This document shows, piece after piece, positions 11,175-38,987 of a stretch of 42,081 nucleotides of DNA (its first letter is position 1; every line of letters begins with the position of its first letter). A program made the translations under genes and the position numbers. The stretch is from positions 1 to 42,081 of the IMG/VR virus record IMGVR_UViG_3300010366_000020; one strand, written 5' to 3'. The notes beneath the pieces are model-generated. The model saw only the letters and a program-made list of their open reading frames with translations, made no database searches and was not told the origin of the DNA. This DNA comes from a virus (Duplodnaviria > Caudoviricetes).

Positions 11175-12179
11175 TCAGGATCGACGATTCGCCCTCAACC
11201 TCAGGTTCTCGCTGCGGGTCACAGCACTAAGGTGCTCCGGGTTCACGCACCTGCGGTTCAGGCATCTGTGGTGCACGTCGTGGCCAGCGGGCACGGCACC
11301 GTTGGCTAGCCCGTACGAGTAGACATGCGCGCCGACCATCACGCCGTGCCGAACGCCGAACTGGCCGTAGCCAGTCTTCGCGTTTACGCTGGCCGCCCAA
11401 AGCCAGCACGTCGGCGTCTTCTGAACCTTCGCCCAGAACCGCTGTGCCGGCGTCCGCTGCGACGGCCGCTCAACCTCGGGGTCCTTGAGCCACTTCCGGT
11501 AGTGCGGCCGGCAGATCGTCCGCTTGAACACTGATCGATCGCAGCCGCCCTCAGTGCAGACGGTTGGTTTCTCCACCTTCGGCTTGGCTAGCACCACTTC
11601 GGGCACGTAGCCCCACGAGTCGCCACCCCGGCCACGGGCAATGTTCTCCCGACGGGTCACCGGTTCGAGGTGCGCAGGGTTCACGCAGCGACGGTGGGGG
11701 CAGTTGGCGTTGTCGGCACAGTCTGGGTCCCTGGTGTGGCAGAGATGGTCGAGCACAAGGCCGTCGGGGATTGGCCCGACGACCAACTGATAGGCAATGC
11801 GGTGCGCGAGGCGCGTCTCGCAGCGGCGGTGCGCGCTTCGGGTGCCGTAGCCGTTGGGCTGCATGTATCCAGTCCATGGCCAGCAGTCGTCAGGTCCGCG
11901 CTGGGTGACCTGCGCCCAGAAGCGCCGCTCTCGGGGATCCGTTGGCTCCCCACGAACCTCGATTCGCCTGGCGTGCATGTGGCAAAGCCCGCGCCTCTGG
12001 GGAGGCGTTTCGCACCCGTCGATGACGCAGATGTCAGGCTGGCGCGCGTAGCGGCGTGTCCGGTATAGCGGGTCGCCGTACGTGCGCCAGCGTGCGTAGT
12101 GCATCGAGCACCAGCCACGCCCAACAACTGGCTTGTCGCAATCCTCGATGGTGCACGGATCGCCTCTTCGTACCTTCAC
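11175..12179 (-). CDS. Free-standing homing endonuclease with two HNH domains and three zinc-finger modules
   Basis: Two CWxW...GYG...AH...H.C..R.CVNP.HL..VT..EN domains; three Cx4C...CxxH modules. Confidence 0.85.
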   Translation of the reverse strand: MKVRRGDPCTIEDCDKPVVGRGWCSMHYARWRTYGDPLYRTRRYARQPDICVIDGCETPPQRRGLCHMHARRIEVRGEPTDPRERRFWAQVTQRGPDDCWPWTGYMQPNGYGTRSAHRRCETRLAHRIAYQLVVGPIPDGLVLDHLCHTRDPDCADNANCPHRRCVNPAHLEPVTRRENIARGRGGDSWGYVPEVVLAKPKVEKPTVCTEGGCDRSVFKRTICRPHYRKWLKDPEVERPSQRTPAQRFWAKVQKTPTCWLWAASVNAKTGYGQFGVRHGVMVGAHVYSYGLANGAVPAGHDVHHRCLNRRCVNPEHLSAVTRSENLRLRANRRS

Positions 12180-16082: not shown

Positions 16083-19000
16083 CTATCCGGGCCCGACTGG
16101 GTTTTTCCCCTTGCGCTCGCCGCTCCACATCCCGGTGGCGTCGTGGAACCACTGGCTTGTCGTGCGGTCCAGTTCCTCCGGGTCGTGGATGAACTGGGCG
16201 AGGTGGGCGCGCAACGTCCGCCACGGGTGAGGCGCGTCGACCCATTTGCCGAGGCCTTCGCCGCGGGTCCAGTACTCGTGCAGGTGTCGCGCCTCGGCGT
16301 CGCCTGCTACACCCTCGTCGACCTTCTGCACGTCGGCTGGCGCGGGCTGGTCCTCGTCGCCGAGCACCGTCACCGTCGCTCCGGCGACGGCCGTGCCCGC
16401 AGCGACACCGCCGAGGGTTGCGACACCACCGCCTGCCGCCTGCCGTAGGTCTCGCAGCAGGCCCTGAAGGTACGGGCGTTGCTGCTCGGCCCGCTGGTCG
16501 GCGATCCTGTCCAGCAGGTCGGCGTACGGGCCGCTGGTCGGATCTCTGTGACCAGCCTGCCGCACCTGCCGGGCCGCGACGATGTCCGCCGTGAGCCGCT
16601 GTTGGAACGCGGCGACCCCAGACTGACCCGTGGATGGAGTCGGTATAGGGCCACGCTGTCCCGCCGAACCCGGCTGCGCCGCACCGCCCTGCGACAGGTA
16701 CGTGATGCCGCAACGGCACCTCGGTCCCCCGCGGCACACCGTGGCCAAATCGCCGAAACCACCCATGCCGGGCAAGCCCGGCAGGTCACCCGGCTCATAC
16801 AGGTTGCCGTCGCGGGCCGAGCACAGGTCGCAGGCACCCGGCTTCGCGTCCCACCGGATCAGCCAGCCATCACCGGTGGAGAGGGTGGCGAGGGACCGGC
16901 CTTCCTCGTATGCGGTCTGCACCACGGTCGCGTACTGGGCGAAGCGGGCGTCGAACGCCTTGCGCCACTCCTCGAACTCCGCCGACGTCTTCGCCACGGC
17001 CGCGGTATCGGCATCCTGGGTGCCGAGGGTCAGACCCTCCCGGATTCCGTCACGCAACACCCCGACGGCGTCGTCAACGAACGGGCCGGTTGAGGCGCCG
17101 CCGTCGGTGAGGGTGTCAGCGAGTCGCGCAAGCCCGTCAACAACCCGCTGCTGCGCGGGCGCGATCGCCTGCGCCCGCTGACCGGCGTCGGCTTTGGCGA
17201 CCGGTTCGCAGCCGAGAGCCGCGAGAACCGCGTCGATGGAGTCGAGGAGTTCCGGGCGCACTGCCGGGTTGCCGGGCAACTGTGCCGGGTCCCACCAGGC
17301 GACCGCTTCGACGGCATCACCGTCCGGGTCGTCCGGGTTGGTGACGGTGTCCCGGCTGCCGTTGACCGGCACGCAGGACTCCGAGTCGACGGTCCACACG
17401 ATGCCCTGGTAGACCCCGTCGGGGCTGGTCCAGGTCCCGGTCTGTTGCCCGGGAGGCGGGATGCACCCCGTTTCCTCTGCCCATTCCCGCCAAGCGCCTT
17501 GCAGCGGCGTCTCGTCGCCTTCCAGGTGGCCGCTCGGACATTCCCAGCAGCCTGCAGCGGGGTCATCGTCGCACAGCGCCCGCTGCAACATGAGGACCCG
17601 CCCGGTGTCGGCCGCACGAACCGCCAGCCCAGCCACAGCAACCTTCCCCGCAGCCTTGCGGACCGCGAGCCGACCGCCGTCGTTGAGCCGATGCGCCTCG
17701 ACCTGGTCGACGTGGCGGAACTCGAAGTCACGCCACGTGCCAGCGCGGCGTCGGGCCTGGCGGAACCGGCGAAACGCCGTCAGTTCCCGCTTGACCAACT
17801 CCTGCCGCTCGTATTCCTCGTCCTCGTCTTCGTCGGGGCTGTGTCCTACGAGGTCGTAGCCGACGATCCCTGTCTCGGTGGTGATCCCCGCCGAAGGGGC
17901 TTGGGCGTCCTTCGCCACCGGGCCCGGCGCTGCTGGCGACGGCGGGGCGATGTTCGGCTGGTCCGGGGCGGGCCCGAACGTCTCCGGATCCACCTTGCCC
18001 GCAAGCCCGTCGATCGCCGCCAAAGGAAGCGGACCGGTGCCCGTGTTGTAGAACCGCGGCGTCGGCCGGTGCGGGTCGCCCGGCAGGCCCAGCAGTTGCT
18101 CGCGGCCCTCGTCGGCGCTGGCCATCCCCGACTCGATGTAGATCTGCCACGCCTGCGCCAGGGCGAGACGGTCTTCCTTCTCCTGCCCGGTGTCGAACGA
18201 GAACTCAACCGGCAGCCCGAGGTCGTGGCGCAGGAATCCGGTAAGGATGCCCTCGACGTGGGAGAGTAAAGGCAGATCACCGACGCGGTGCTGCACATCA
18301 GCCTGCGTCTCACCCGAGGAGCGGTTGACGTTCTCCGTGAACCCCAGATCCGCAGGCACCACGTGGTACGCGGCACAACTCTTACGCATCAAGAACAAGC
18401 TGAACTGGTCGGAGAAGTCTTTCTCGTTCGACCACTCGATGGTCGACCCGCCGGGAATCCAGCGGATCTGGTTCTTCATCGCCTGGTCGCCGAGCATGAA
18501 CGCGTCCCAGTACTCCTGGAACTGCTCGATCTGCGTCGGTGTCCACGTCTCCGGCGCCGACGCGAACGCCTCCGGGATGTTGCCCTCAGTGAAGCGTTGC
18601 AGGAAGTATGCCTGGAACCGCAGGTCGGTGTTGGCGTTCAGCAGGATCGACTCCAGCGGCGCCCGCCCGTAAGGGCTGTTAGTGACCGGCCGGAACGGCT
18701 CATAGACCAAGTCGGCGCGGGTCAGCCAGTTGAACGGCAGGCCCTGCACGTATTGCACGTAGGCCTCGGCCGGCGGCTCCGGGCTGTTGCCCCAGTAGTC
18801 GAGCAGCGGGGCGATACTCGTGCCGTCCACCACCCGCAGCCCGATCGCGTCACCGCGACGGTTCCGCATCCGGTACAGCGTGCCGGCGTCGTAGGCGAGC
18901 ACGTCGTACAGCCACTTCGCCAGCCAGTTCGCGAACGGGGTCTGCCGGTCGGGCTTCTCCAACACGGCCATGCCCGCGGCGATGGCCGCGTCGGCGTCGC

Positions 19001-19343
19001 CGTGGTACCCGCGGGCCGCGACGAGGGACCAGTCCATGGCGCGGATCGAGTCGATGCGGTGCCAGATGCACATCTGCGCCACGTCGTACGCGTCGACCAG
19101 ACCCTTGAGGGTGTCGAACGCTACCCGCTCGTGGCTGCGGGGCCGGGCGGAGATGTTGTAGCCGGTGACGAAGTCCCGCGACCGTGGGTTACGGGAGTAT
19201 CCGTCGTAGGGGCCGATCGGTTCGCCGGGGGAGAACGGGCGGCCAGGGGTCATGCCGGCGTCGGCCTCAGCCGCCGCGACCGATGGTGGTTCGGCGGGGC
19301 CGAACACCTTCCGCAAAGCGGCGAGGCGGTCGCGGACACCCAT
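16083..19343 (-). CDS. Portal protein fused to Nudix hydrolase, MuF-like and C-terminal domains
   Basis: N-terminal ~420 aa portal (YGRAPLE, FTEGNIP, AYHVVPADLG); Nudix box GHLEGDETPLQGAWREWAEETG; CDLC...GPRCRC MuF-like motif; C-terminal YWTRGEGLGKW...HPW domain. Confidence 0.88.
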   Translation of the reverse strand: MGVRDRLAALRKVFGPAEPPSVAAAEADAGMTPGRPFSPGEPIGPYDGYSRNPRSRDFVTGYNISARPRSHERVAFDTLKGLVDAYDVAQMCIWHRIDSIRAMDWSLVAARGYHGDADAAIAAGMAVLEKPDRQTPFANWLAKWLYDVLAYDAGTLYRMRNRRGDAIGLRVVDGTSIAPLLDYWGNSPEPPAEAYVQYVQGLPFNWLTRADLVYEPFRPVTNSPYGRAPLESILLNANTDLRFQAYFLQRFTEGNIPEAFASAPETWTPTQIEQFQEYWDAFMLGDQAMKNQIRWIPGGSTIEWSNEKDFSDQFSLFLMRKSCAAYHVVPADLGFTENVNRSSGETQADVQHRVGDLPLLSHVEGILTGFLRHDLGLPVEFSFDTGQEKEDRLALAQAWQIYIESGMASADEGREQLLGLPGDPHRPTPRFYNTGTGPLPLAAIDGLAGKVDPETFGPAPDQPNIAPPSPAAPGPVAKDAQAPSAGITTETGIVGYDLVGHSPDEDEDEEYERQELVKRELTAFRRFRQARRRAGTWRDFEFRHVDQVEAHRLNDGGRLAVRKAAGKVAVAGLAVRAADTGRVLMLQRALCDDDPAAGCWECPSGHLEGDETPLQGAWREWAEETGCIPPPGQQTGTWTSPDGVYQGIVWTVDSESCVPVNGSRDTVTNPDDPDGDAVEAVAWWDPAQLPGNPAVRPELLDSIDAVLAALGCEPVAKADAGQRAQAIAPAQQRVVDGLARLADTLTDGGASTGPFVDDAVGVLRDGIREGLTLGTQDADTAAVAKTSAEFEEWRKAFDARFAQYATVVQTAYEEGRSLATLSTGDGWLIRWDAKPGACDLCSARDGNLYEPGDLPGLPGMGGFGDLATVCRGGPRCRCGITYLSQGGAAQPGSAGQRGPIPTPSTGQSGVAAFQQRLTADIVAARQVRQAGHRDPTSGPYADLLDRIADQRAEQQRPYLQGLLRDLRQAAGGGVATLGGVAAGTAVAGATVTVLGDEDQPAPADVQKVDEGVAGDAEARHLHEYWTRGEGLGKWVDAPHPWRTLRAHLAQFIHDPEELDRTTSQWFHDATGMWSGERKGKNPVGPG

Positions 19344-19363
19344 GTGACGAACCCTCCGTTCGC

Positions 19364-21822
19364 CTACCTGTGGTGGTGTCCTCGGTGGAGGGCGTCACGA
19401 ACTCGTTTGCGGGCGGCAACGGGATCCTCGGTAGGCGCGGGTGTGGGCTCGACGGCCGATGTGGGTGCGGCTTCCCCTGCCGGGGCGGCTGGCGTGGGTT
19501 GCGTGGCGACGGTTTCCGCCCTGCGGCGGATGTAGTCGATCCACGCCTGGGCGCCGGTGCCGTCCAGCATCAACTGCGCCAACGCCTGACTCGTCGCGTC
19601 CACCTGGTCGTCGTGGCCGCCGTGGGGGAACGCCGCCGCCTCGTCAATGAGCCCTTCAGGGTCGAACAACGCGATCGACGCCTCCGGCAGATGCACGTTA
19701 CCGGCCTCGATGATGGGCGCGACAGCGTTGGCCCGGGCGTACTTGCTCTCCGTCGGGGTGACCGCCACGATCCCCGGGATTTTCGACCGGAACGTGTCGA
19801 TGATCGCTGTCCCGTTGGCCTTGTCCTCCACGTACTTCGCGGTGGCTTGCGGCCACCGCGCCGTCATCGCCTTGAACGCCGCCATCGTGTCGGTAAACGA
19901 CAGGCGTCTGTGGATCTGGTCGAGCAGGTACAGGTTCGCGCCGCGCCGGGCCCACACCTGCCCAACCACGTAGTCCGAGGACTTGGTGTCCTTGAAGGTC
20001 ATGTCCCACGACATGACCATCTCGTCGCACTCGTCCACGAGGTAGGCGTCCGGCGCCGTCGGGTGCTGCGACCACAGCGGCGCGCTGTAGCGACGCCACC
20101 ACGTCCGCCTCCACACGTTCCCGGCATCCGGCGACGGGCGCCCCTGGTACAGGGCGTTGAACACACGGGAGCCGACGTCGAGGCGGATCTGTTCCCACTG
20201 CGCGACGGTCCGGCCGCGGGCCGACACCATCCACTCGCCCGGCTGCCGGCCCAGCGGATCAGTCTCGCCCGCCTCGGGGTTGTGGTCAGCGAGCGCGGGA
20301 ATGTTGATCAGTCGCCACGGTGACCCGTCCTGGCTTAGCAGCCGACCGGCGAGGTCATCCTCATGCCAGCGAGTGTTATGGCTGACCAGCCCGTTGGCAA
20401 TGAAGTTTTCGGTGCGGTCGACCTGGATGTCGTAGACCTCATCGACTCCCGCTGGCTCTACAGCGGCGACCTCATCGAATACCACGCTCCACGTACTCAG
20501 CGGCCTGACGTAGGAGGCCAGGGTCGCTGCGCCCATATCCGACTGCGAGGTTGCAGCTGTTGCAGAGCAGACCGCGCACTGCTCCGGTGTCGTGGCAGTG
20601 GTCGACGCAGAGCATTTCGGCCCAGTGATCGGGGCTCTTGGCTGCATCCGGGAGTGCATGGCAGATAGCACAGACGCCGCCTTGCTCTCCCAGGATGCGT
20701 TCGTAATCGTCGAGCGTGATCCCGTAGCGATGCTTGAGCTTGGCTGATCGGCGAGAGCGAGAACCAGGCGCAGAAGAGGGTGGGCGGTGGCCGGCAGCCC
20801 AACGGGCTCGGCCGTAATGCGACATGCACATGCCTTTGCAGCGGGCTGGCTCATCGCAGTCATTGATTGAGCAGGTGACGCCTCGGTATTGCCCCCAATA
20901 GCCCTCAGGATGCGTGACGCCGGCCTTAGGCGATCCGTTCGCAGCCATACCTCTGCCCCGTCCCTGACGGTCAGGAATGGGTGGCGGGCGTTGGCCCGCA
21001 CGGTGGCCCCTGACTTCATCCTGATTTTATAGATCGTATCAGGACCTTGGCTGGACCAGTTGCGCACCACTGACGTGACGAGTCTCCCGGCCTCATAGGT
21101 GGCAATGGCGTCCCCTGGACGCACATCCCGCAGTGGCCTCTCCGTACCATCCGCCATGAGCACAGGAGTGTCCCCGGTCATGCACAAGATGAGAACGACG
21201 GGCGCGCCTGGGGCGAGGCGGGTACGAGCGACGTTGGTCCACCAGTCCCACACGCCGTCCCGGTACACCTGAGAGTCGGCCTGCTTGCGGTCCTTGACCG
21301 GATCGTCCAGGAGTAGCAGGTCAACAGGACGGCCGGTCAGCGCCCCGCCGATGCCGACGCAGTACACGCCACCGCGGTGACCGTCAAGCTGCCACTCGTG
21401 GGCGGCGGCCATGTCCTGCCGCACTGACAGCCCTAGTTCGGGGTGTTCGGCGACGTCGTTGCGGATGGCTCGGCCCCACCGACGGGCGACGCCGTGCTCG
21501 TAGGAGGCGATTGCGATACGCAGGTCCGGGTTGCGGGTCAGCAGCCACAGCGGTGTGCGGCGGCTGACCCGTTCGCTTTTCCCTCTTGCGGGCTCATGCA
21601 GATGATCAGCCGCTCGCACGAGCCGTTGGCCACATCCACCAGTGCAGCATCGATCAAGCCCAACGCGGCGGTCTGTACGGTCTTCGGGTCCACCGCCAGA
21701 GCCAGTGCGCCTGGCGTGGCGAAGGAAGGCCCGTAAGACTTAGCTTCAGCCCGAAGCCGGGCCAGAAGCCGTTGCTTCGCTGCGAGATCCCAACTGCGCC
21801 ACGAGTCGTTCGATCTCGGCAT
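19364..21822 (-). CDS. terL: Terminase large subunit (intein-containing; -1 frame break at 21577-21583)
   Basis: Walker A MSPQEGK|SERVSRR split across two frames; LTGRPVDLLLLDDPVKD Walker B; TRWHEDDL; nuclease SWDMTFK, VEDKANG and HDDQVDA. Start ATG 21822 is inferred. Confidence 0.9.
20375..21184 (-). mobile_element. Intein (270 aa) in TerL
   Basis: Starts CMTGDTPVLMADG, block B ANARHPF, ends VYDIQVDRTENFIANGLVSHN with +1 Thr; removal restores VVLIL-TRWHEDDLAG. Confidence 0.95.
20472..20948 (-). CDS. Endonuclease VII-family nuclease nested in the -1 frame inside the intein
   Basis: YGITLDDYERILGEQGGVCAIC...VDHCHDTGAVRGLLCNSCNLAVG; N-terminal Cx4C...CxxHY finger. Confidence 0.9.
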   Translation of the reverse strand: MAANGSPKAGVTHPEGYWGQYRGVTCSINDCDEPARCKGMCMSHYGRARWAAGHRPPSSAPGSRSRRSAKLKHRYGITLDDYERILGEQGGVCAICHALPDAAKSPDHWAEMLCVDHCHDTGAVRGLLCNSCNLAVGYGRSDPGLLRQAAEYVERGIR

Positions 21823-22249
21823 CAACAGCGTCGACGTTGCGCACCTCCGACTTCGATGGAGCGTCAAGCCCGAATGTCTTCGCCACCCGCTCGTGGATCC
21901 GCAACGCCGTGTTGATGGCCGCGATCTTCGGGCCCACGTCTTCAAGCCGCTCGCCAGTCTCGTCATCGCGGATCACGGTGCCCCGCTGAACGCTGACCAA
22001 CGGATGGTGCGAGTTGAGGATCTTCATAGTCTCGGCGTAGAGCATCGCCACGCGATCGGCCTCAACCTTGCGAAGATCATCTACGGCCTCGTCCGGAATT
22101 GACGCCCGAACCTCGGCGAGGATCTGACTGACCCGTGCCTGGCTGATGCCGAACCGCTCGGCGATGGCATCTTGGGTGGCGCCGTTGAGATATGCCTGCC
22201 ACACCTCACCGTTACGGCCACGAAGACGATCACGAGGTCTGCTGGCCAT
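21746..22249 (-). CDS. terS: Terminase small subunit (HTH)
   Basis: N-terminal HTH GATQDAIAERFGISQARVSQIL; ERVAKTFGLDAP motif; directly upstream of terL. Confidence 0.75.
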   Translation of the reverse strand: MASRPRDRLRGRNGEVWQAYLNGATQDAIAERFGISQARVSQILAEVRASIPDEAVDDLRKVEADRVAMLYAETMKILNSHHPLVSVQRGTVIRDDETGERLEDVGPKIAAINTALRIHERVAKTFGLDAPSKSEVRNVDAVDAEIERLVAQLGSRSEATASGPASG

Positions 22250-22336
22250 AAGTTTTCACCACCTCACGCGGCGACCACGAGCAGGACAATGGCGAGCAGG
22301 GGTAGGACCTGCTGCGGACTATTGATCCGTTTCAAA

Positions 22337-24973
22337 TCAAAGCAGGGTGGCGCACACGTCATCAACGTAGATAGTGCCATTAAGATTTGTGTTAGCCACG
22401 TCTATTAATGCTGCTGTTATCCCGGCAGGGACGACGAGTTGGGCTGCGTACGCCGTCCAGTCCTGAACAGCTGTGATCGTCGGACTCAGGTAGGCCACGA
22501 CGGTGCGGGTTGTGTAATCTGACAAATACCAGGACACGCGGAAGACTGTTGAACCGCCGGTCATCGCCGCGACTTTAATCCAGCCGGTAACGATCAGTTC
22601 GCGGCCGGGAATTACCGCGATCATCTGCTGGAGGTTGGAGCCGACAGCTACCCCGGTGCCGACAATCTTGACCGATTTCGTACCCGTCCGGAACACGGAC
22701 GTGTCAAACGTGTAGGTAAGCGTCCCGCCCTTAGTCCACTGGATTCCCGGGTACAGCGGAAACGCGGCGGATGCCCCGAATGATGACGACGATTCGAAAT
22801 CACCGTTGACAAGCAGGTTGGTGTACTGCCCCATCACCGCAGATTGTGTCAAGGAGCCAGTATTGTCCATCTGGCAACCGTGATGGACCACACGCGGCAA
22901 GAATGAGGACAGGTTTTTGAAAACAGTCGTCGTGCGGGCGTAGGTATCAAACGCCACGCCGTACATGCTCAGGTATACACCGGCTACCGATGTTGCCGTG
23001 ACCTCGATTAGGTGGTCCCGGCCATCGCCCGTCTCCGTCTGGACACAGACACCGCCGAACAGGCCCATGGTCGTGCGGGGGTTGGCTGGATTAGAGGTGC
23101 GGGTCAACAAAATGTACGGGTTAGCGTTGTTCGACTCGAAATGGCACCCATAGAACCACAATTTACCGCCCTGATGTAGGACGGCGTAGTTGTTGTAGTC
23201 GAAACTGCATGCGTGGAATGAGACGTCTGGATCGCCGGTGGGTGATGTGTACACGGCTGTCGCGGTTCCGCTGGTGGCATTAGTAGCGTTGAAGAAGGTG
23301 CAGCCGTAGAAATTGTAATTCTCTCCAGCGTTTGCCTGAGCATCAATATTGAGGCTGTACCTGGCCCAGTGACCGGCAATGACCCTATCAAAAGTGATGC
23401 ACCACGTGTTCGCGTCAAAGAAAAACTGGTCCCTGAACCCGTTAACAGATACGTCGCGCAACGCGATCATCGACGAGTTAGCGGAGCCAACAAATCTGAA
23501 CCCGTCCGTGGTTGTCGTGTCCGACTGGGGGCCAAGAATCCTGAGGCCGCCGATGTGGTGCTCAATGGCGCGGAACGCCGCACCGCTGGTGGAGCAATCA
23601 AGCGTGATGGCGTATCCGGAGGTCAGGCCGGTGAAGTCAAGGATCACCTGCCCGGTGGCGAATACGCTGCCCTGGGTCGGATCCCACGCCAAGCTGGTAT
23701 TGCACTTGTACGTGCCCTGTGGGAGGTACACGTCGGCGCCGGTGGCGAGGATAGTGGTGATCGCCGACTGGATCGCGGCGCCTTCTTCCGCCCCGGTACC
23801 TGCGACGCCGAAGTCTCGGATGTTGCGGGCGGTCGAGGTTTTGGCGACGTAGGTAGATGCCGCCGTCGTGCTCGCCAGCTTCGCCGCAAGGTCCGCGACT
23901 AGTCCAGACACCTTCGCCTGGGCGATGGCTGCGGTGTTGGAGATGTCGGTGTCGACGATCGACCCGTCCGCGATTTTCGCCGATGTGACGCTGCCGTCGA
24001 TCGGCGTACGGGCGTCCGCCAATCGGCTGTCTGATCCGATGACCACCTGATCTGACGTGGCGTTGCCTGCCAGTGGGGTGTCTTTAAGCGCCGCGGTTCC
24101 CAGACCTAGATTCTGTCGGGCCGTCGCTGAGTCGGCCAGGTCGGCCAGGTTGCTGGCCTTGTTGAGCTTGGTTGCCGCTGCGGTGTCCGTATAGGCGCTG
24201 GCTGTAGCAAGTGTTGAGGTATCACCTGAGTCTGCGTAGGACTTGTTGACGGCTTGCGCCCCGGTTGTTGGCGTGGGCACGGTCGGCGGTGAAGTGAAAG
24301 TCTTCGTGCCTGCAATGCTCTGCCCTGTTGTCAGGTCAACAAAGTTTTGCGTCGCCGTGCCTGTGCCGCCCTGCGTTATGGGCAATGGAGAGGTTAGATG
24401 GGTGGCTACGACGGTGGGTGCCGTCGCGGCGCCGCCGATGTCGCCTGCAAGTTGCACAGCACCGGGCGACGATTCAGATGCGTTTGGTGCGGCAATGATT
24501 ACATCGACCCGGTTTTGCGCCTGGTTGTCCGTTACGCTCAGTGAAACGTTTGAGCCTTCGACCAGGTTAACCTCGGGCCGAGAGGCGATTACTGATCCGC
24601 CTTTGGCCACCTGCATACCAGTGATCGCCACTGGCGACGGGACCACCGTCGGCGACACCACAATCGACGACACGATGTACGGGCCAGCCCCGTTCGGTAC
24701 GACGATCGCGTACTGAGCAGCGAACCTGGGGTAGTCCCTGCGCTCGGTGACCAGGTAGTAGGTGTTGGCGGGGGAGATCAGGCTGTTTGGGGTCAGCGTG
24801 AGCGACCACACCCCGGAGCCGTTGGTGATCGTCGATATTGGGGCGTTAATCGCTTGGCCGTTGGCGAACCCTGGCATGGTGGAGCCGGTGTACAGCTGCA
24901 CGGTGATGTTGACGCCAGCGATGACGGCGCCGGTCGGGTCCACGACCGTGTTGATCACCGTGGGATTAGTCAC
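22337..24973 (-). CDS. Tailspike/fibre-like protein with beta-helix (pectin-lyase-like) and C-terminal carbohydrate-binding-like domain
   Basis: Fibre motifs (NLADLADSATARQNLGLG, DGSVTSAKIADG); NIRDFG...AIQSAI...VYLPQGTY beta-helix start; NLLVNGDFE...IYVDDV CBM-like end. Confidence 0.8.
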   Translation of the reverse strand: MTNPTVINTVVDPTGAVIAGVNITVQLYTGSTMPGFANGQAINAPISTITNGSGVWSLTLTPNSLISPANTYYLVTERRDYPRFAAQYAIVVPNGAGPYIVSSIVVSPTVVPSPVAITGMQVAKGGSVIASRPEVNLVEGSNVSLSVTDNQAQNRVDVIIAAPNASESSPGAVQLAGDIGGAATAPTVVATHLTSPLPITQGGTGTATQNFVDLTTGQSIAGTKTFTSPPTVPTPTTGAQAVNKSYADSGDTSTLATASAYTDTAAATKLNKASNLADLADSATARQNLGLGTAALKDTPLAGNATSDQVVIGSDSRLADARTPIDGSVTSAKIADGSIVDTDISNTAAIAQAKVSGLVADLAAKLASTTAASTYVAKTSTARNIRDFGVAGTGAEEGAAIQSAITTILATGADVYLPQGTYKCNTSLAWDPTQGSVFATGQVILDFTGLTSGYAITLDCSTSGAAFRAIEHHIGGLRILGPQSDTTTTDGFRFVGSANSSMIALRDVSVNGFRDQFFFDANTWCITFDRVIAGHWARYSLNIDAQANAGENYNFYGCTFFNATNATSGTATAVYTSPTGDPDVSFHACSFDYNNYAVLHQGGKLWFYGCHFESNNANPYILLTRTSNPANPRTTMGLFGGVCVQTETGDGRDHLIEVTATSVAGVYLSMYGVAFDTYARTTTVFKNLSSFLPRVVHHGCQMDNTGSLTQSAVMGQYTNLLVNGDFESSSSFGASAAFPLYPGIQWTKGGTLTYTFDTSVFRTGTKSVKIVGTGVAVGSNLQQMIAVIPGRELIVTGWIKVAAMTGGSTVFRVSWYLSDYTTRTVVAYLSPTITAVQDWTAYAAQLVVPAGITAALIDVANTNLNGTIYVDDVCATLL

Positions 24974-25007
24974 CCGCCACCACCCCCGGGCGTTCGACAA
25001 GCGTGTG

Positions 25008-34522: not shown

Positions 34523-35670
34523 TCAGAAAGGTGGTTCGCTTGCGGACCACGGATCGGTCGGGACTTCGGCGTAGCGGTCAATCGCGAGGAGCTTCGGCAA
34601 GGTCGAGTCGCCCGCGCGAGCAGTAAGGGCGCCTCGTACTGCCTTTGCGATATGGGTCGCGCAGAATGCCACGTGACCGGCGCACTTCATGGCTCCCCGC
34701 GGAAGGCAGTCAGCGCAGTCGATAATCCATACGCGCCACGTAGCCCGCTGTGGACACTTGGCCCAGCGCCCAGCGTCGGCGTAACACATGCCGTGCAGGA
34801 CACGGCCGGTCTCCCGGTATCTCTGCGCCATCCGCATGGCCCGCGCCCGGATGTGGTCGCCAGATGGCCCCTCCTCGTGGTCGTCGGAGCCAAGGGCGCA
34901 TGCGAGCCATTCGACCTGCTCGTCGTGGGGAAGAAGCCCGAAGTTGGCGGCATAGATTCGGTCTTCAGCGAACCGCGCCGCACGGCACGGCACAGCACAT
35001 CGATGTTGTCGTGCTGGCTGCCCATGAACTCGATAACATCTTGCCGAGCAGCCTCAAAATCGGCTTCACGCTCATTTTCCGGGAAGGCGTAGAGAAGGTT
35101 TTCGAGCGCATTCTCAAGCGACGTCCTGTGATCCGCTGCCTGCTCCATCGCGGCAACAGCAAGGTTGACTGTGTCGTCGCTGGATACGGCATCGCCTTGC
35201 CACTCGGCTCGGCGACGGATACCCGGCATATCGCCCGGGTCATAGACGTACTCCAGGATGTGCTCAGCGAGAGCATGCATCCCCTGCTCATGCCCTTGCT
35301 CATGCGCGGGGGCTGCAATGATGTTGCGTTCTACAGGATGGAGTCGTCGGATCTTCTCCTCGGTGTTGAGATCGTCGAAAGACGACTCGACGAGAGCAAG
35401 ATCGTTATGCGTATCGTTGAACAGTGGGCCTTCGGTCTCGATGGCGTGCTTCTCTGCGTCGAGGGCTGCCCGGCGGATGGGGAAATACTCAACCTGCACT
35501 CGGCTGATCGCTAACCACCACGCCTTGTCGGACCGATGCTGCCGGAGCCGGGCGGGCAGGTTGACCGAGATGCCGATGTACAACAGGGCGTCTGTCCGGT
35601 CAAAGAACCGGTAAAGGGCGTGCGGCATTTGCGGCAGTTTCATCGTTGCAACGCTGACGCGATCAACCAT
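34523..35670 (-). pseudogene. GIY-YIG nuclease-domain protein, frameshifted by a 5-bp repeat expansion
   Basis: ALYRFFDRTDALLYIGISVNLPARLRQH...AEKHAIETEGPLFN; removing one GTGCC unit at 34979-34998 joins the two ORFs as IDVLCRAARFAEDRI. Confidence 0.7.
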
Positions 35671-35697
35671 TCGGGTCTCCCGGCGGGCAGGGGCAAT

Positions 35698-35785
35698 TCG
35701 TAGGTCCAACTGTAGGCCCATTTGAACCACGGGACAACACTCGTAGGTCCGTTTGTTGCCCTGTCGGGGCATACAGCCGTACCCT
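35698..35785. promoter_or_regulatory. Divergent promoters with direct-repeat operator candidates
   Basis: Minus strand TTGTCC-N17-TACAGT (35709-35737); plus strand TTGCCC-N18-TACCCT (35756-35785); TCGTAGGTCC at 35698 and 35741. Confidence 0.55.
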
Positions 35786-35791
35786 GTCTGC

Positions 35792-35992
35792 ATGGCTACC
35801 GAGAGCGACGTGCGCCGCGTGCGGATCGACGCGGAGACGTGGGCTGCATATGCCGAGGTGGTCGGCGATGCGGGACGCTCGGCGGACATCAAGGCGTACG
35901 TCGAGTGGCGCCTCGACAACCCGGCCACCCCCCTGCCGGGCAGGCGTCGCGGGCCGGTCAAGAAGAGCCGCCGCACCTCCGCTGACACCTAG
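35792..35992 (+). CDS. Ribbon-helix-helix-like DNA-binding protein
   Basis: VRRVRIDAETWAAYAEVVG...RSADIKAYVEW; leaderless start 6 nt after TACCCT. Confidence 0.7.
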   Translation: MATESDVRRVRIDAETWAAYAEVVGDAGRSADIKAYVEWRLDNPATPLPGRRRGPVKKSRRTSADT

Positions 35993-37482: not shown

Positions 37483-37826
37483 CAGGCCACCGCCCCTGCG
37501 GCGACCTGGATCAGTACATCGGCGTGGCACGGAAGGTTGAGCGAGCACCAGCACGCGAGGTCGCGCCCGGCCAGCTCGGCGCGGGCCGCCTCGATCAGGT
37601 CGGGGCGCCCGCGTAGGTACTCGCGGTACCGCTGTACCGCCTCGGCGTGCGCCTGCGGGGTGTGGACCGCCGGCCGGTACGGGTTGGCGAACTTGCTGGG
37701 GGCCGAGACGACGACGGCGCCCAACGGCTTGCGCCATCCCGTGGTGCGTCGTAGCTGGATGCGATGAGGAAACTCGCTGCAACCAGGGTTTGCCTCATTA
37801 CATCCCGCGGATATCTTGTTACTCAC
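37482..37826 (-). CDS. DUF4326-type protein
   Basis: RIQLRRTTGWRKP...PSKFANPY...ELAGRDLACWC...CHADVL. Confidence 0.85.
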   Translation of the reverse strand: MSNKISAGCNEANPGCSEFPHRIQLRRTTGWRKPLGAVVVSAPSKFANPYRPAVHTPQAHAEAVQRYREYLRGRPDLIEAARAELAGRDLACWCSLNLPCHADVLIQVAAGAVA

Positions 37827-38542
37827 AGCAGGGCCTCAAATCGCATCTCGTAGTCCGAGTACCAGTGCTCGTTGTGTTGAAGAGCAAGATCAGAAAGGTC
37901 ACTCCACAGGTCAGGAAGAGCGACCATCCCCAACTCAATCCACGGGAACGGGTCACGATCCCCCTTTCTGCTGTTGCAACTCACACACGCCGGAACCAAG
38001 TTGGCTGGCGCCGATCGGCCACCGCGGGCGACCGGCCAGATGTGGTCCCAACTTCCCCGCCATCGGCCACATCCGTAGGCGCAAGCACCGGAGAAGTCCT
38101 CAACGCGGTCGGTCGCCCACCACGCCGGAATCGGATCAAGTCCACGGCGGCGAGCTTTTGTCCGCGCCCTTATCGGCGCCGGGTTGGCCGCGTAGTGTTG
38201 GCGGTACTCGGCGTTTAGATGAGTCCGGCAGGCACCTTGTGACACCGAGGCCGAAGGAAGCCACGCCTGGCAGCCACGACACCAAGCGAATCCAGCAGCG
38301 GCCTGAACGCGACGCTCGCGACCACCCGGACCATTGCTCGTCCGCCTGATGTATTTGGACTCGCGACAGACAGATGAGAGTCCGTCGCCGCGAGAGCGGT
38401 CCGCGCCAAAGTCAGCGCGCAACTGCCATGTTTTGCAGCGGGTGCACCACTTTTCACCAGCATCGAGATGAGCGAGGTATTCGTCGAAAGGGAGACCCGC
38501 TCGTGTGGCAGTCGCTTTCAATGCTCCAATCGCGCTACCCAC
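37823..38542 (-). CDS. HNH endonuclease with zinc-finger repeats
   Basis: CAYGC...DHIWPVARGG...NLVPACVSCNSRKG; KWCTRCK and WCRGCQ repeats. Confidence 0.88.
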   Translation of the reverse strand: MGSAIGALKATATRAGLPFDEYLAHLDAGEKWCTRCKTWQLRADFGADRSRGDGLSSVCRESKYIRRTSNGPGGRERRVQAAAGFAWCRGCQAWLPSASVSQGACRTHLNAEYRQHYAANPAPIRARTKARRRGLDPIPAWWATDRVEDFSGACAYGCGRWRGSWDHIWPVARGGRSAPANLVPACVSCNSRKGDRDPFPWIELGMVALPDLWSDLSDLALQHNEHWYSDYEMRFEALL

Positions 38543-38987
38543 GGCGGTTCGCCGTCTCGTCCACCGCATCCCGGTCCCGGCGGGCCTGCCACCTCGCCAT
38601 CGTGGTCAGGGCCACGTCCAGCAGCTCGTAGTCGACATCCCCGTCACCGGCCCACGCCTGCTGGAGCTCGTCGACCTCCATCTCGATCACGGCGCGGGCG
38701 TAGCTGTCCGGTACCTCGGGGTGGATGACTGCGGCGTCGCCGTGCTTGCTGAGCGCGTGGCGGGCGCGGGCCTGCAACGTGGTGATGGTGGTGGTGTCCA
38801 GCGGCCCAGACATGGCTGCCAGGCGCCGGTTCACCACGGCGAGTTGGCGACGCAATTCGGTGTTGCGCCCGGCCACACCAGCAGCCCACGTCTCCAGGCG
38901 GGCCAAGTAGTTCGCGAGTTGGGGTGGCACGGTCACACCGTCCGGGCGTACCGGGCAGGTCGTCGGACGAGAAAGCTCAGGCGGCAT
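38535..38987 (-). CDS. Hypothetical protein
   Basis: Coupled 150-aa ORF. Confidence 0.6.
   Translation of the reverse strand: MPPELSRPTTCPVRPDGVTVPPQLANYLARLETWAAGVAGRNTELRRQLAVVNRRLAAMSGPLDTTTITTLQARARHALSKHGDAAVIHPEVPDSYARAVIEMEVDELQQAWAGDGDVDYELLDVALTTMARWQARRDRDAVDETANRRG

Follow-up and report, generated by a model that had tools for sequence, protein, structure and literature searches.

An endonuclease VII-like gene overprinted in frame 3 of a TerL intein in an uncultured soil virus

We analyzed a virus record of 42,081 bases and 67% GC (IMG/VR record IMGVR_UViG_3300010366_000020; Duplodnaviria, Caudoviricetes), hereafter the window, in which the gene for the terminase large subunit (TerL) is interrupted by an intein that carries, in a second reading frame, an open reading frame (ORF) for an endonuclease VII (EndoVII)-like protein. 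The window comes from an uncultured soil virus; genes for the head, the tail and replication lie on its minus strand. GC content and DNA matches to the terminases of Arthrobacter and Brevibacterium phages suggest that its host is actinobacterial. The element and the two parts of TerL that flank it (the exteins) are as follows.

20375..21184, minus strand: class 1 intein of 270 aa (C1; block B N65-H68; D252; H269-N270; Thr+1), at terL site TerL6-f of mycobacteriophages
20894..21184, minus strand: half of the splicing domain at the N-terminus (residues 1-97), modelled as a HINT fold of beta-strands (per-block pLDDT model confidence 80-97; Foldseek)
20375..20491, minus strand: C-terminal splicing half, residues 232-270 (pLDDT 90-98 per block; TIGR01443)
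20472..20948, minus strand: nested endonuclease VII-like gene, 158 aa, ATG to TGA, in frame 3 (= -1) of the intein (Pfam, PHROG, structure model)
19364..20374, minus strand: TerL C-extein, the remaining ATPase and RNase H-like nuclease domain (Terminase_6C E 1.5e-19; TIGR01630)
21185..21577, minus strand: TerL N-extein past a frame change, from the Walker A Ser to VVLIL (sequence)

The initial annotation, made from the letters alone, had described a complete TerL intein with a separate EndoVII-type gene overprinted in it, and both elements and all their coordinates were borne out. The intein starts with C1 at 21184 and ends with H269-N270 at 20375, the next residue being Thr, and its flanks read VVLIL|TRWH, as does the same site in the empty alleles L248 and L390 (VVLIL|TRWHED). 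Both NCBIfam intein end models (TIGR01445 and TIGR01443) match above their cut-offs, the structure model matches solved inteins (best Foldseek match the NpuDnaB intein, E 5e-9), and C1, H68 and N270 are invariant in 40/40 aligned homologous inteins. C1, H68 of block B, H269-N270, Thr+1, the HINT fold and the precise in-frame insertion together place the element among class 1 inteins. The linker between the two HINT halves has a pLDDT mostly below 50 and, as the in-frame middle had been described as lacking a nuclease motif, profile searches of the intein frame returned no match to any nuclease family; a canonical bifunctional intein is therefore not what lies here. The linker appears to be a by-product that needs only to stay free of stop codons.

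The nested ORF spans intein residues 79-80 to about 238 and overlaps confidently modelled strands of both splicing halves. It scores 76 bits against Pfam Endonuclease_7 (cut-off 23.6; E 1.9e-21) and also matches five PHROG endonuclease VII families, and its structure model (pLDDT 87.6) is closest to T4 EndoVII and Hpy99I. The protein has a predicted N-terminal zinc finger (C26/C31/C41/H44) followed by a His-Me core formed by C93, C96, D116, H117, C129, C132 and N133, in which D116, H117 and N133 are what we take to be the counterparts of T4 EndoVII D40, H41 and N62.

To place the element we examined 247 loci, the window included, from homologue searches seeded with the window nuclease and intein, in which the best 80 of 130, 218 and 156 candidates were kept. 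This intein is carried by 119 of the loci, corresponding to 84 distinct intein DNAs, of which 80 are full length, three short and one broken. A second open frame is in itself easily had by chance: codon shuffles within residues gave a probability of about 0.19 that the second frame in the window intein would be free of stops, and 24/116 free-standing EndoVII relatives have a second frame open over about 90 codons, a shorter matched segment. The two stop-free frames offered in the initial annotation are thus weak evidence by themselves, and so is its argument that Leu and Val codons are CTC and GTC where TGA must be avoided, which concerns three codon pairs, CTC/GTC also making up 9/14 of the other Leu/Val codons. 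The weight of the evidence rests on conservation across homologues. An unbroken frame-3 ORF of 150-197 aa is present in 80/84 distinct inteins (all those of full length), and the arrangement persists among nucleases with an average identity of 51-54%. Compensating indels that would put the nuclease in frame were seen neither in a contig from run X1 (depth about 20), which is identical to the window over 19300-22300 and possibly from the source sample, hence not independent, nor in the 79 other full-length inteins; they are excluded because those homologues keep the same frame relation, not through independent reads. Runs X2 and X3 contain small shares only, and neither spans the locus.

The nuclease frame was also found to be constrained. 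Over 125 core columns in 65 representatives (homologues less than 80% identical to each other), the three nuclease codon positions have nucleotide identities of 0.64, 0.68 and 0.38 in turn; at the amino-acid level, identity is 0.54 for the nuclease frame versus 0.28 for the intein frame. D116, H117, N133 and the four core Cys, which form two CxxC pairs, are invariant in 65/65 representatives, and C26, C31 and C41 of the predicted zinc finger likewise. The ratio of nonsynonymous to synonymous substitution rates (dN/dS) is 0.099 for the nuclease frame (13 usable unsaturated pairs of 18 disjoint close pairs) and 0.097 for the splicing domain (14 usable of 18). As judged by these comparisons, purifying selection acts on the nuclease frame and not on the overlapping intein frame. 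An apparent positive selection on the intein frame (dN/dS about 2) was rejected as a frame-offset artefact, because neutral third positions of nuclease codons fall on second positions of intein codons.

The initial annotation had left open whether this architecture is published, and it is, so that the element does not represent a new class. An endonuclease VII-like homing endonuclease in frame 3 of actinophage inteins has been described in a preprint, which names Angelicage, Affeca, Keitabear and Sedona as examples in its cluster 47 (Gosselin, Arsenault, Gogarten, bioRxiv 10.1101/2025.01.02.630785). The same four phages are the top matches of the window intein (53-54% identity over 100% of its length). 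The window element and these examples share the insertion site in the same host protein, the class of intein, and the family and frame of the nuclease; as in that family, the window's EndoVII-like ORF lies on the intein's strand, in frame 3, inside the homing endonuclease region. The nuclease of the window is 47-52% identical to those of Angelicage and Affeca, with flanks and frame alike (loci L081 and L086), while Keitabear and Sedona were compared by tblastn only. The window element is almost certainly a member of this family, from which it differs in that its sequence is distinct, that it comes from a soil virus that is uncultured, and that Walker A of its terL carries a -1 break. Since the terms 'start codon', 'synonymous', 'promoter' and 'metagenom' do not occur in the main text of the preprint, as distinct from its supplements, the evidence given here on selection and initiation, and the wider host range, are additions to it.

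Literature searches returned no further papers on this architecture. Site TerL6-f lies in the ATPase coupling motif, and the intein of Chandler gp6 splices in a reporter (Kelley et al. 2016, PMC5050341). That intein is 48.7% identical to the window's, belongs to the same site and family and carries the same frame-3 ORF, which goes unmentioned in the available passages of the paper; in these, BAKA and Bethlehem supplied the only inteins assayed for cleavage, both of the LAGLIDADG type (PMC5050341). A related case is the out-of-frame HNH insertion of ShiLan in phage methylases (PMC11855218). Like the nested gene, it is a His-Me nuclease of the homing type that has a start codon of its own and lies in frame 3 within an open host frame, but it has no splicing domain and belongs to another nuclease family and another host gene.

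We considered how the nested gene could be translated, for which internal initiation or slippage had been proposed. Two further features bear on this.

20956..20959, minus strand: Shine-Dalgarno (SD)-like run of purines (GGGG) that falls on a conserved Gly codon of the intein, 8-11 nt ahead of the nested ATG; inferred from a family-wide bias
21024..21048, minus strand: constrained synonymous sites (intein codons 47-49) and a non-conserved TATAAAAT; possible promoter or operator (alignment)

All 80 full-length inteins have a start codon at the nested ORF (65 ATG, 15 GTG), formed by the last base of the preceding codon and the TG of the intein's invariant Trp. In the 22 representatives where C or T would be silent, the base before this TG is always A or G (background 44%), and it is A in 17 of them (background 19%). 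Three positions before the start, the Gly codon is GGA in 33/62 cases versus 57/402 of other Gly codons, and pairing with the anti-SD sequence is stronger than in synonymous shuffles in 50/65 representatives. These biases in sequence favour internal initiation, the first of the two proposed routes, over slippage for the nested nuclease.

The other element proposed to drive expression fared less well. The window does contain the reported TAA (21027-21029), which closes the -1 frame, and the reported TATAAAAT (21024-21031); TATAA occurs at this position in 2/61 aligned homologues, and no sigma-70-type promoter or terminator was predicted in 20300-21900, so that its role as a promoter is not supported. 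Intein codons 47-49, 55, 58, 67 and 69 show unusually strong constraint at their synonymous sites. At codons 47-49 (21035-21048), about 90 nt upstream of the nested start, GGT is found in 43/61 and GAT in 52/61. This constraint hints at a signal in DNA or RNA, and the stretch 21035-21048 is possibly a promoter, or an operator for the zinc finger of the nuclease.

The distribution of the element resembles that of a homing element. All 84 distinct inteins sit at one insertion site, with C first and N|T[RW]W last where flanks are visible, and the site is the same even in the distant TerL exteins among them. The 15 exteins closest to the window's are all intein-free, led by L248 (88%), which matches the prediction of homing; the intein-free comparison set consists of 25 alleles gathered near the window terL and says little about other branches. 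Nucleases that are 86% identical (L089/L090) are found in exteins 35% identical. The element also occurs in records titled Oribacterium, Dysosmobacter, Kistimonas, Endozoicomonas, Iainarchaeum metagenome-assembled genome (MAG) and Anaerolineae MAG (L167, L168, L170-L173). These bacterial and archaeal records outside Actinobacteria suggest a range wider than that surveyed in the preprint, the placement of MAGs being tentative.

Three mini-inteins at the same site (L113:2001-2453, L138:1301-1837 and L153:2001-2492) keep nuclease fragments in frame 3, and these relics mark them as decay products of internal deletion and not as capture intermediates. In a fourth locus, L012:2255-2993, a deletion has brought the nuclease into the reading frame of the intein's N-half, and a stop then cuts off the C-half and the rest of TerL; this is a broken allele or a misassembly. 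No viable in-frame nuclease fusion was seen among the 84 distinct inteins, in searches seeded by this element. The earlier suggestion that the element is a stage of nuclease capture by a mini-intein is thus not supported, given the conserved layout, the lack of a viable fusion and the derivation of mini-inteins by deletion. The description of a dual-coding selfish element with the nuclease as a separate gene agrees with the dN/dS of about 0.10 in the nuclease's own frame and with the homing-like distribution.

Taken as a whole, the sequence evidence makes a full cycle of splicing, separate initiation and homing likely. The class 1 intein would excise itself from TerL as a mini-intein with a floppy passenger loop, and the frame-3 endonuclease VII-like protein would be translated separately from its own ATG, initiation probably being aided by the SD-like run on the Gly codon. 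The nuclease would cut intein-free terL at or near VVLIL|TRWH, and the whole element would be copied into the cut allele by gene conversion through break repair. The terL precursor of 819 aa (549 aa once spliced) would in addition require a -1 ribosomal frameshift in Walker A. By all indirect signs, the element is functional.

Several points weigh against this reading. Across the family, expression of the nuclease and its cleavage activity are predicted from sequence, and the Foldseek E-values of the nuclease model to EndoVII are modest (6e-3 to 2e-2). The homologues are related to one another, so the counts are not independent, and those for the start codon and SD pairing are inflated. The invariant Trp fixes the TG of the start codon, and where the preceding residue is Lys, Glu or Gln (43/65) an ATG or GTG follows automatically; the window's own SD is not significant (p 0.24). 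Identities of extein and nuclease correlate (rho 0.31), meaning that much of the inheritance is vertical, and the preprint describes the distribution of these inteins as 'more ambiguous' (bioRxiv 10.1101/2025.01.02.630785). In-frame or otherwise different variants may also be under-sampled by searches seeded with this element.

A different doubt concerns the window copy itself. The long terL ORF is without its true N-terminus; the upstream frame reads as far as MSPQEGK, with the Walker A Ser encoded in the -1 frame, a break that the initial annotation had overlooked. The features at this position are given below.

21577..21583, minus strand: slippery heptamer G_GGA_AAA within Walker A (PQEGK|S), a predicted -1 ribosomal frameshift site (sequence comparison)
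21535..21570, minus strand: predicted RNA hairpin 6 nt past the heptamer (-28.6 kcal/mol, z -3.6)
21538..21822, minus strand: first terL frame, with an inferred ATG start at 21822; the unshifted product of 94 aa ends at TGA (sequence)
21746..22249, minus strand: helix-turn-helix (HTH) protein immediately before terL, likely the small terminase subunit (HTH matches; phrog_645; position of gene 1 of Gordonia phages)

The inferred terL start overlaps the 3' end of this HTH (likely terS) gene by 77 nt (21746-21822, minus strand).

The break in Walker A could have arisen by an ordinary deletion that inactivated the gene, or by misassembly, leaving the element in a defective prophage gene; the window copy would then be dead. 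A single base lost from a short run gives the same sequence, reads over the site come only from the possible source sample, and the closest full extein, L248, is intact. Covariation in the hairpin lies within the range of shuffled controls, and L311 is without a local hairpin. However, the same codon is broken, at an identical G_GGA_AAA_G, in 13 other distinct terL genes (L270, L311, L316, L319, L321, L328, L332, L333, L336, L352, L373, L375 and L390). These came from pattern scans that required the G_GGA_AAA motif and thus covered this shift site alone: eight from one scan, L270, and four more from a later scan. In one scan 8/15 distinct terL with GGA-AAA codons were shifted versus 0/13 with GGG-AAA, and only six intact alleles of that scan could give the shifted form by loss of a single base. 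The downstream fold averages -23.5 kcal/mol in 10 shifted terL versus -12.1 in 28 intact ones (L090 being outside this comparison), and the long -1 frame has remained open. With these points on the other side, we consider a dead window copy improbable and, on the comparison of sequences, a programmed frameshift in Walker A very likely.

In two of the scans, 41/49 and 43/50 pattern matches were dropped as not terL, and in a third 2/36 were not terL and six duplicates were dropped; L384 is the window's own record and was excluded from all counts. None of the 13 shifted terL genes showed this intein: ten have an empty junction, in two the -1 frame has the length of an intein-free gene (421 and 424 aa), and L375 is too short for a judgement. 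Conversely, among the 76 distinct intein-bearing loci with enough upstream DNA, the window alone has the heptamer. Since L390, with an N-extein 89% identical to the window's, is already shifted while intein-free, the frameshift probably predates the intein, which would have homed into an already shifted terL. Shifted and intact alleles interleave on the extein tree, which suggests that the shift may have been repeatedly gained or lost.

Four loci (L261, L303, L324 and L326) match the Walker A pattern and continue in frame into other insertions, and were not counted as shifts; these intein-like insertions of about 320-380 aa follow directly after the Walker A Lys, two bases from the frameshift position elsewhere. 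In L021, Walker A is in a different frame from the intein, while its close relative L022 is in frame, a possible assembly error.

Both G_GGA_AAG and G_GGA_AAC are listed as shift sites in a review, in the available part of which the only recoding noted for a terminase is a proposed bypassing in Streptomyces phage Hau3 (PMC5009743). The Hau3 case is UUA-linked bypassing and not a -1 slip. The candidate in the window resembles the G/GT shifts of phage tail-assembly genes in recoding an X_XXY_YYZ heptamer in a morphogenesis gene; unlike those, the shift would be needed to complete the Walker A loop of the terminase. Literature searches over titles and the beginnings of abstracts, and part of one review, returned no terminase -1 frameshift in Walker A, which does not establish its absence from print. 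We also considered that the -1 frameshift, splicing and internal initiation of the overprinted nuclease could act together in this one essential gene: most ribosomes would stop at 21538, and the lightly translated intein mRNA would free the nested start and set the ratio of nuclease to terminase. This coupling is speculative and, in our judgement, rather unlikely.

Other alternatives concern the nuclease. It could be expressed and domesticated, serving in the resolution of branched DNA or assisting the terminase in packaging, with no homing. The selection seen fits homing and such a phage role equally, and T4 EndoVII is a junction resolvase. HNH proteins are also known to assist some terminases (PMC11855218). 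Close relatives are nevertheless entirely without the element, the insertion site is one and the same across distant terminases, and deletion derivatives exist. Domestication in place of homing is therefore quite improbable.

Alternatively, translation in the intein frame could slip by -1 into frame 3 and yield the nuclease as a fusion. Frame 3 of the window is open for 26 codons before the nested ATG, and the phage apparently uses a -1 shift elsewhere in the same gene. In contrast, a frame-3 stop lies directly before the nested start in 8/80 homologues and within three codons in 20/80, and an in-phase X_XXY_YYZ in the open stretch before the start is found in 1/80 and not in the window. Slippage is disfavoured because of these nearby stops and the near absence of slippery heptamers, and the start-codon and SD biases indicate initiation; a slip-made fusion is very improbable.

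That the ORF of the nuclease is a relic that has fallen silent, or a passing stage toward in-frame fusion, two fates that the preprint raises (bioRxiv 10.1101/2025.01.02.630785) and to which the ease of a second open frame in GC-rich EndoVII genes (24/116 controls) and the in-frame nuclease of L012 could lend support, is largely refuted by the low dN/dS and the catalytic residues that stay invariant over deep divergence, as well as by the truncation of L012 and the lack of any viable fusion, and is extremely improbable.

With splicing, internal initiation and homing as the preferred account, the hidden nuclease combines purifying selection equal in strength to that on the splicing domain, a conserved start on a structural Trp and decay by internal deletion, from which overprinting appears to be a stable means of making an intein mobile. 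Because the cultured phages Chandler, Pipefish and Angelicage carry the family, expression and homing are directly testable in them. The nested gene is annotated in 0/7 intein-bearing GenBank/RefSeq records, and annotation pipelines overlook it. If the Walker A frameshift is real, it would control DNA packaging in a further, separate way that is possibly unpublished, and terL genes of this kind would be mis-started or called broken.

Elsewhere in the window, an 887-aa gene at 22337-25000 (minus strand) has lower GC, repeats and beta-helix-like sequence and could encode a tail spike; it lies upstream of the terminase genes and distant from the tail module, and its Pfam matches are weak. Three more free-standing HNH or EndoVII-like endonuclease genes are found at 11175-12179, 34687-35988 and 37823-38569 (minus strand), the first of them with two matching stretches. 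The portal protein of 1086 aa (16083-19343, minus strand) is a fusion that includes a NUDIX domain and extends far at its C-terminus.

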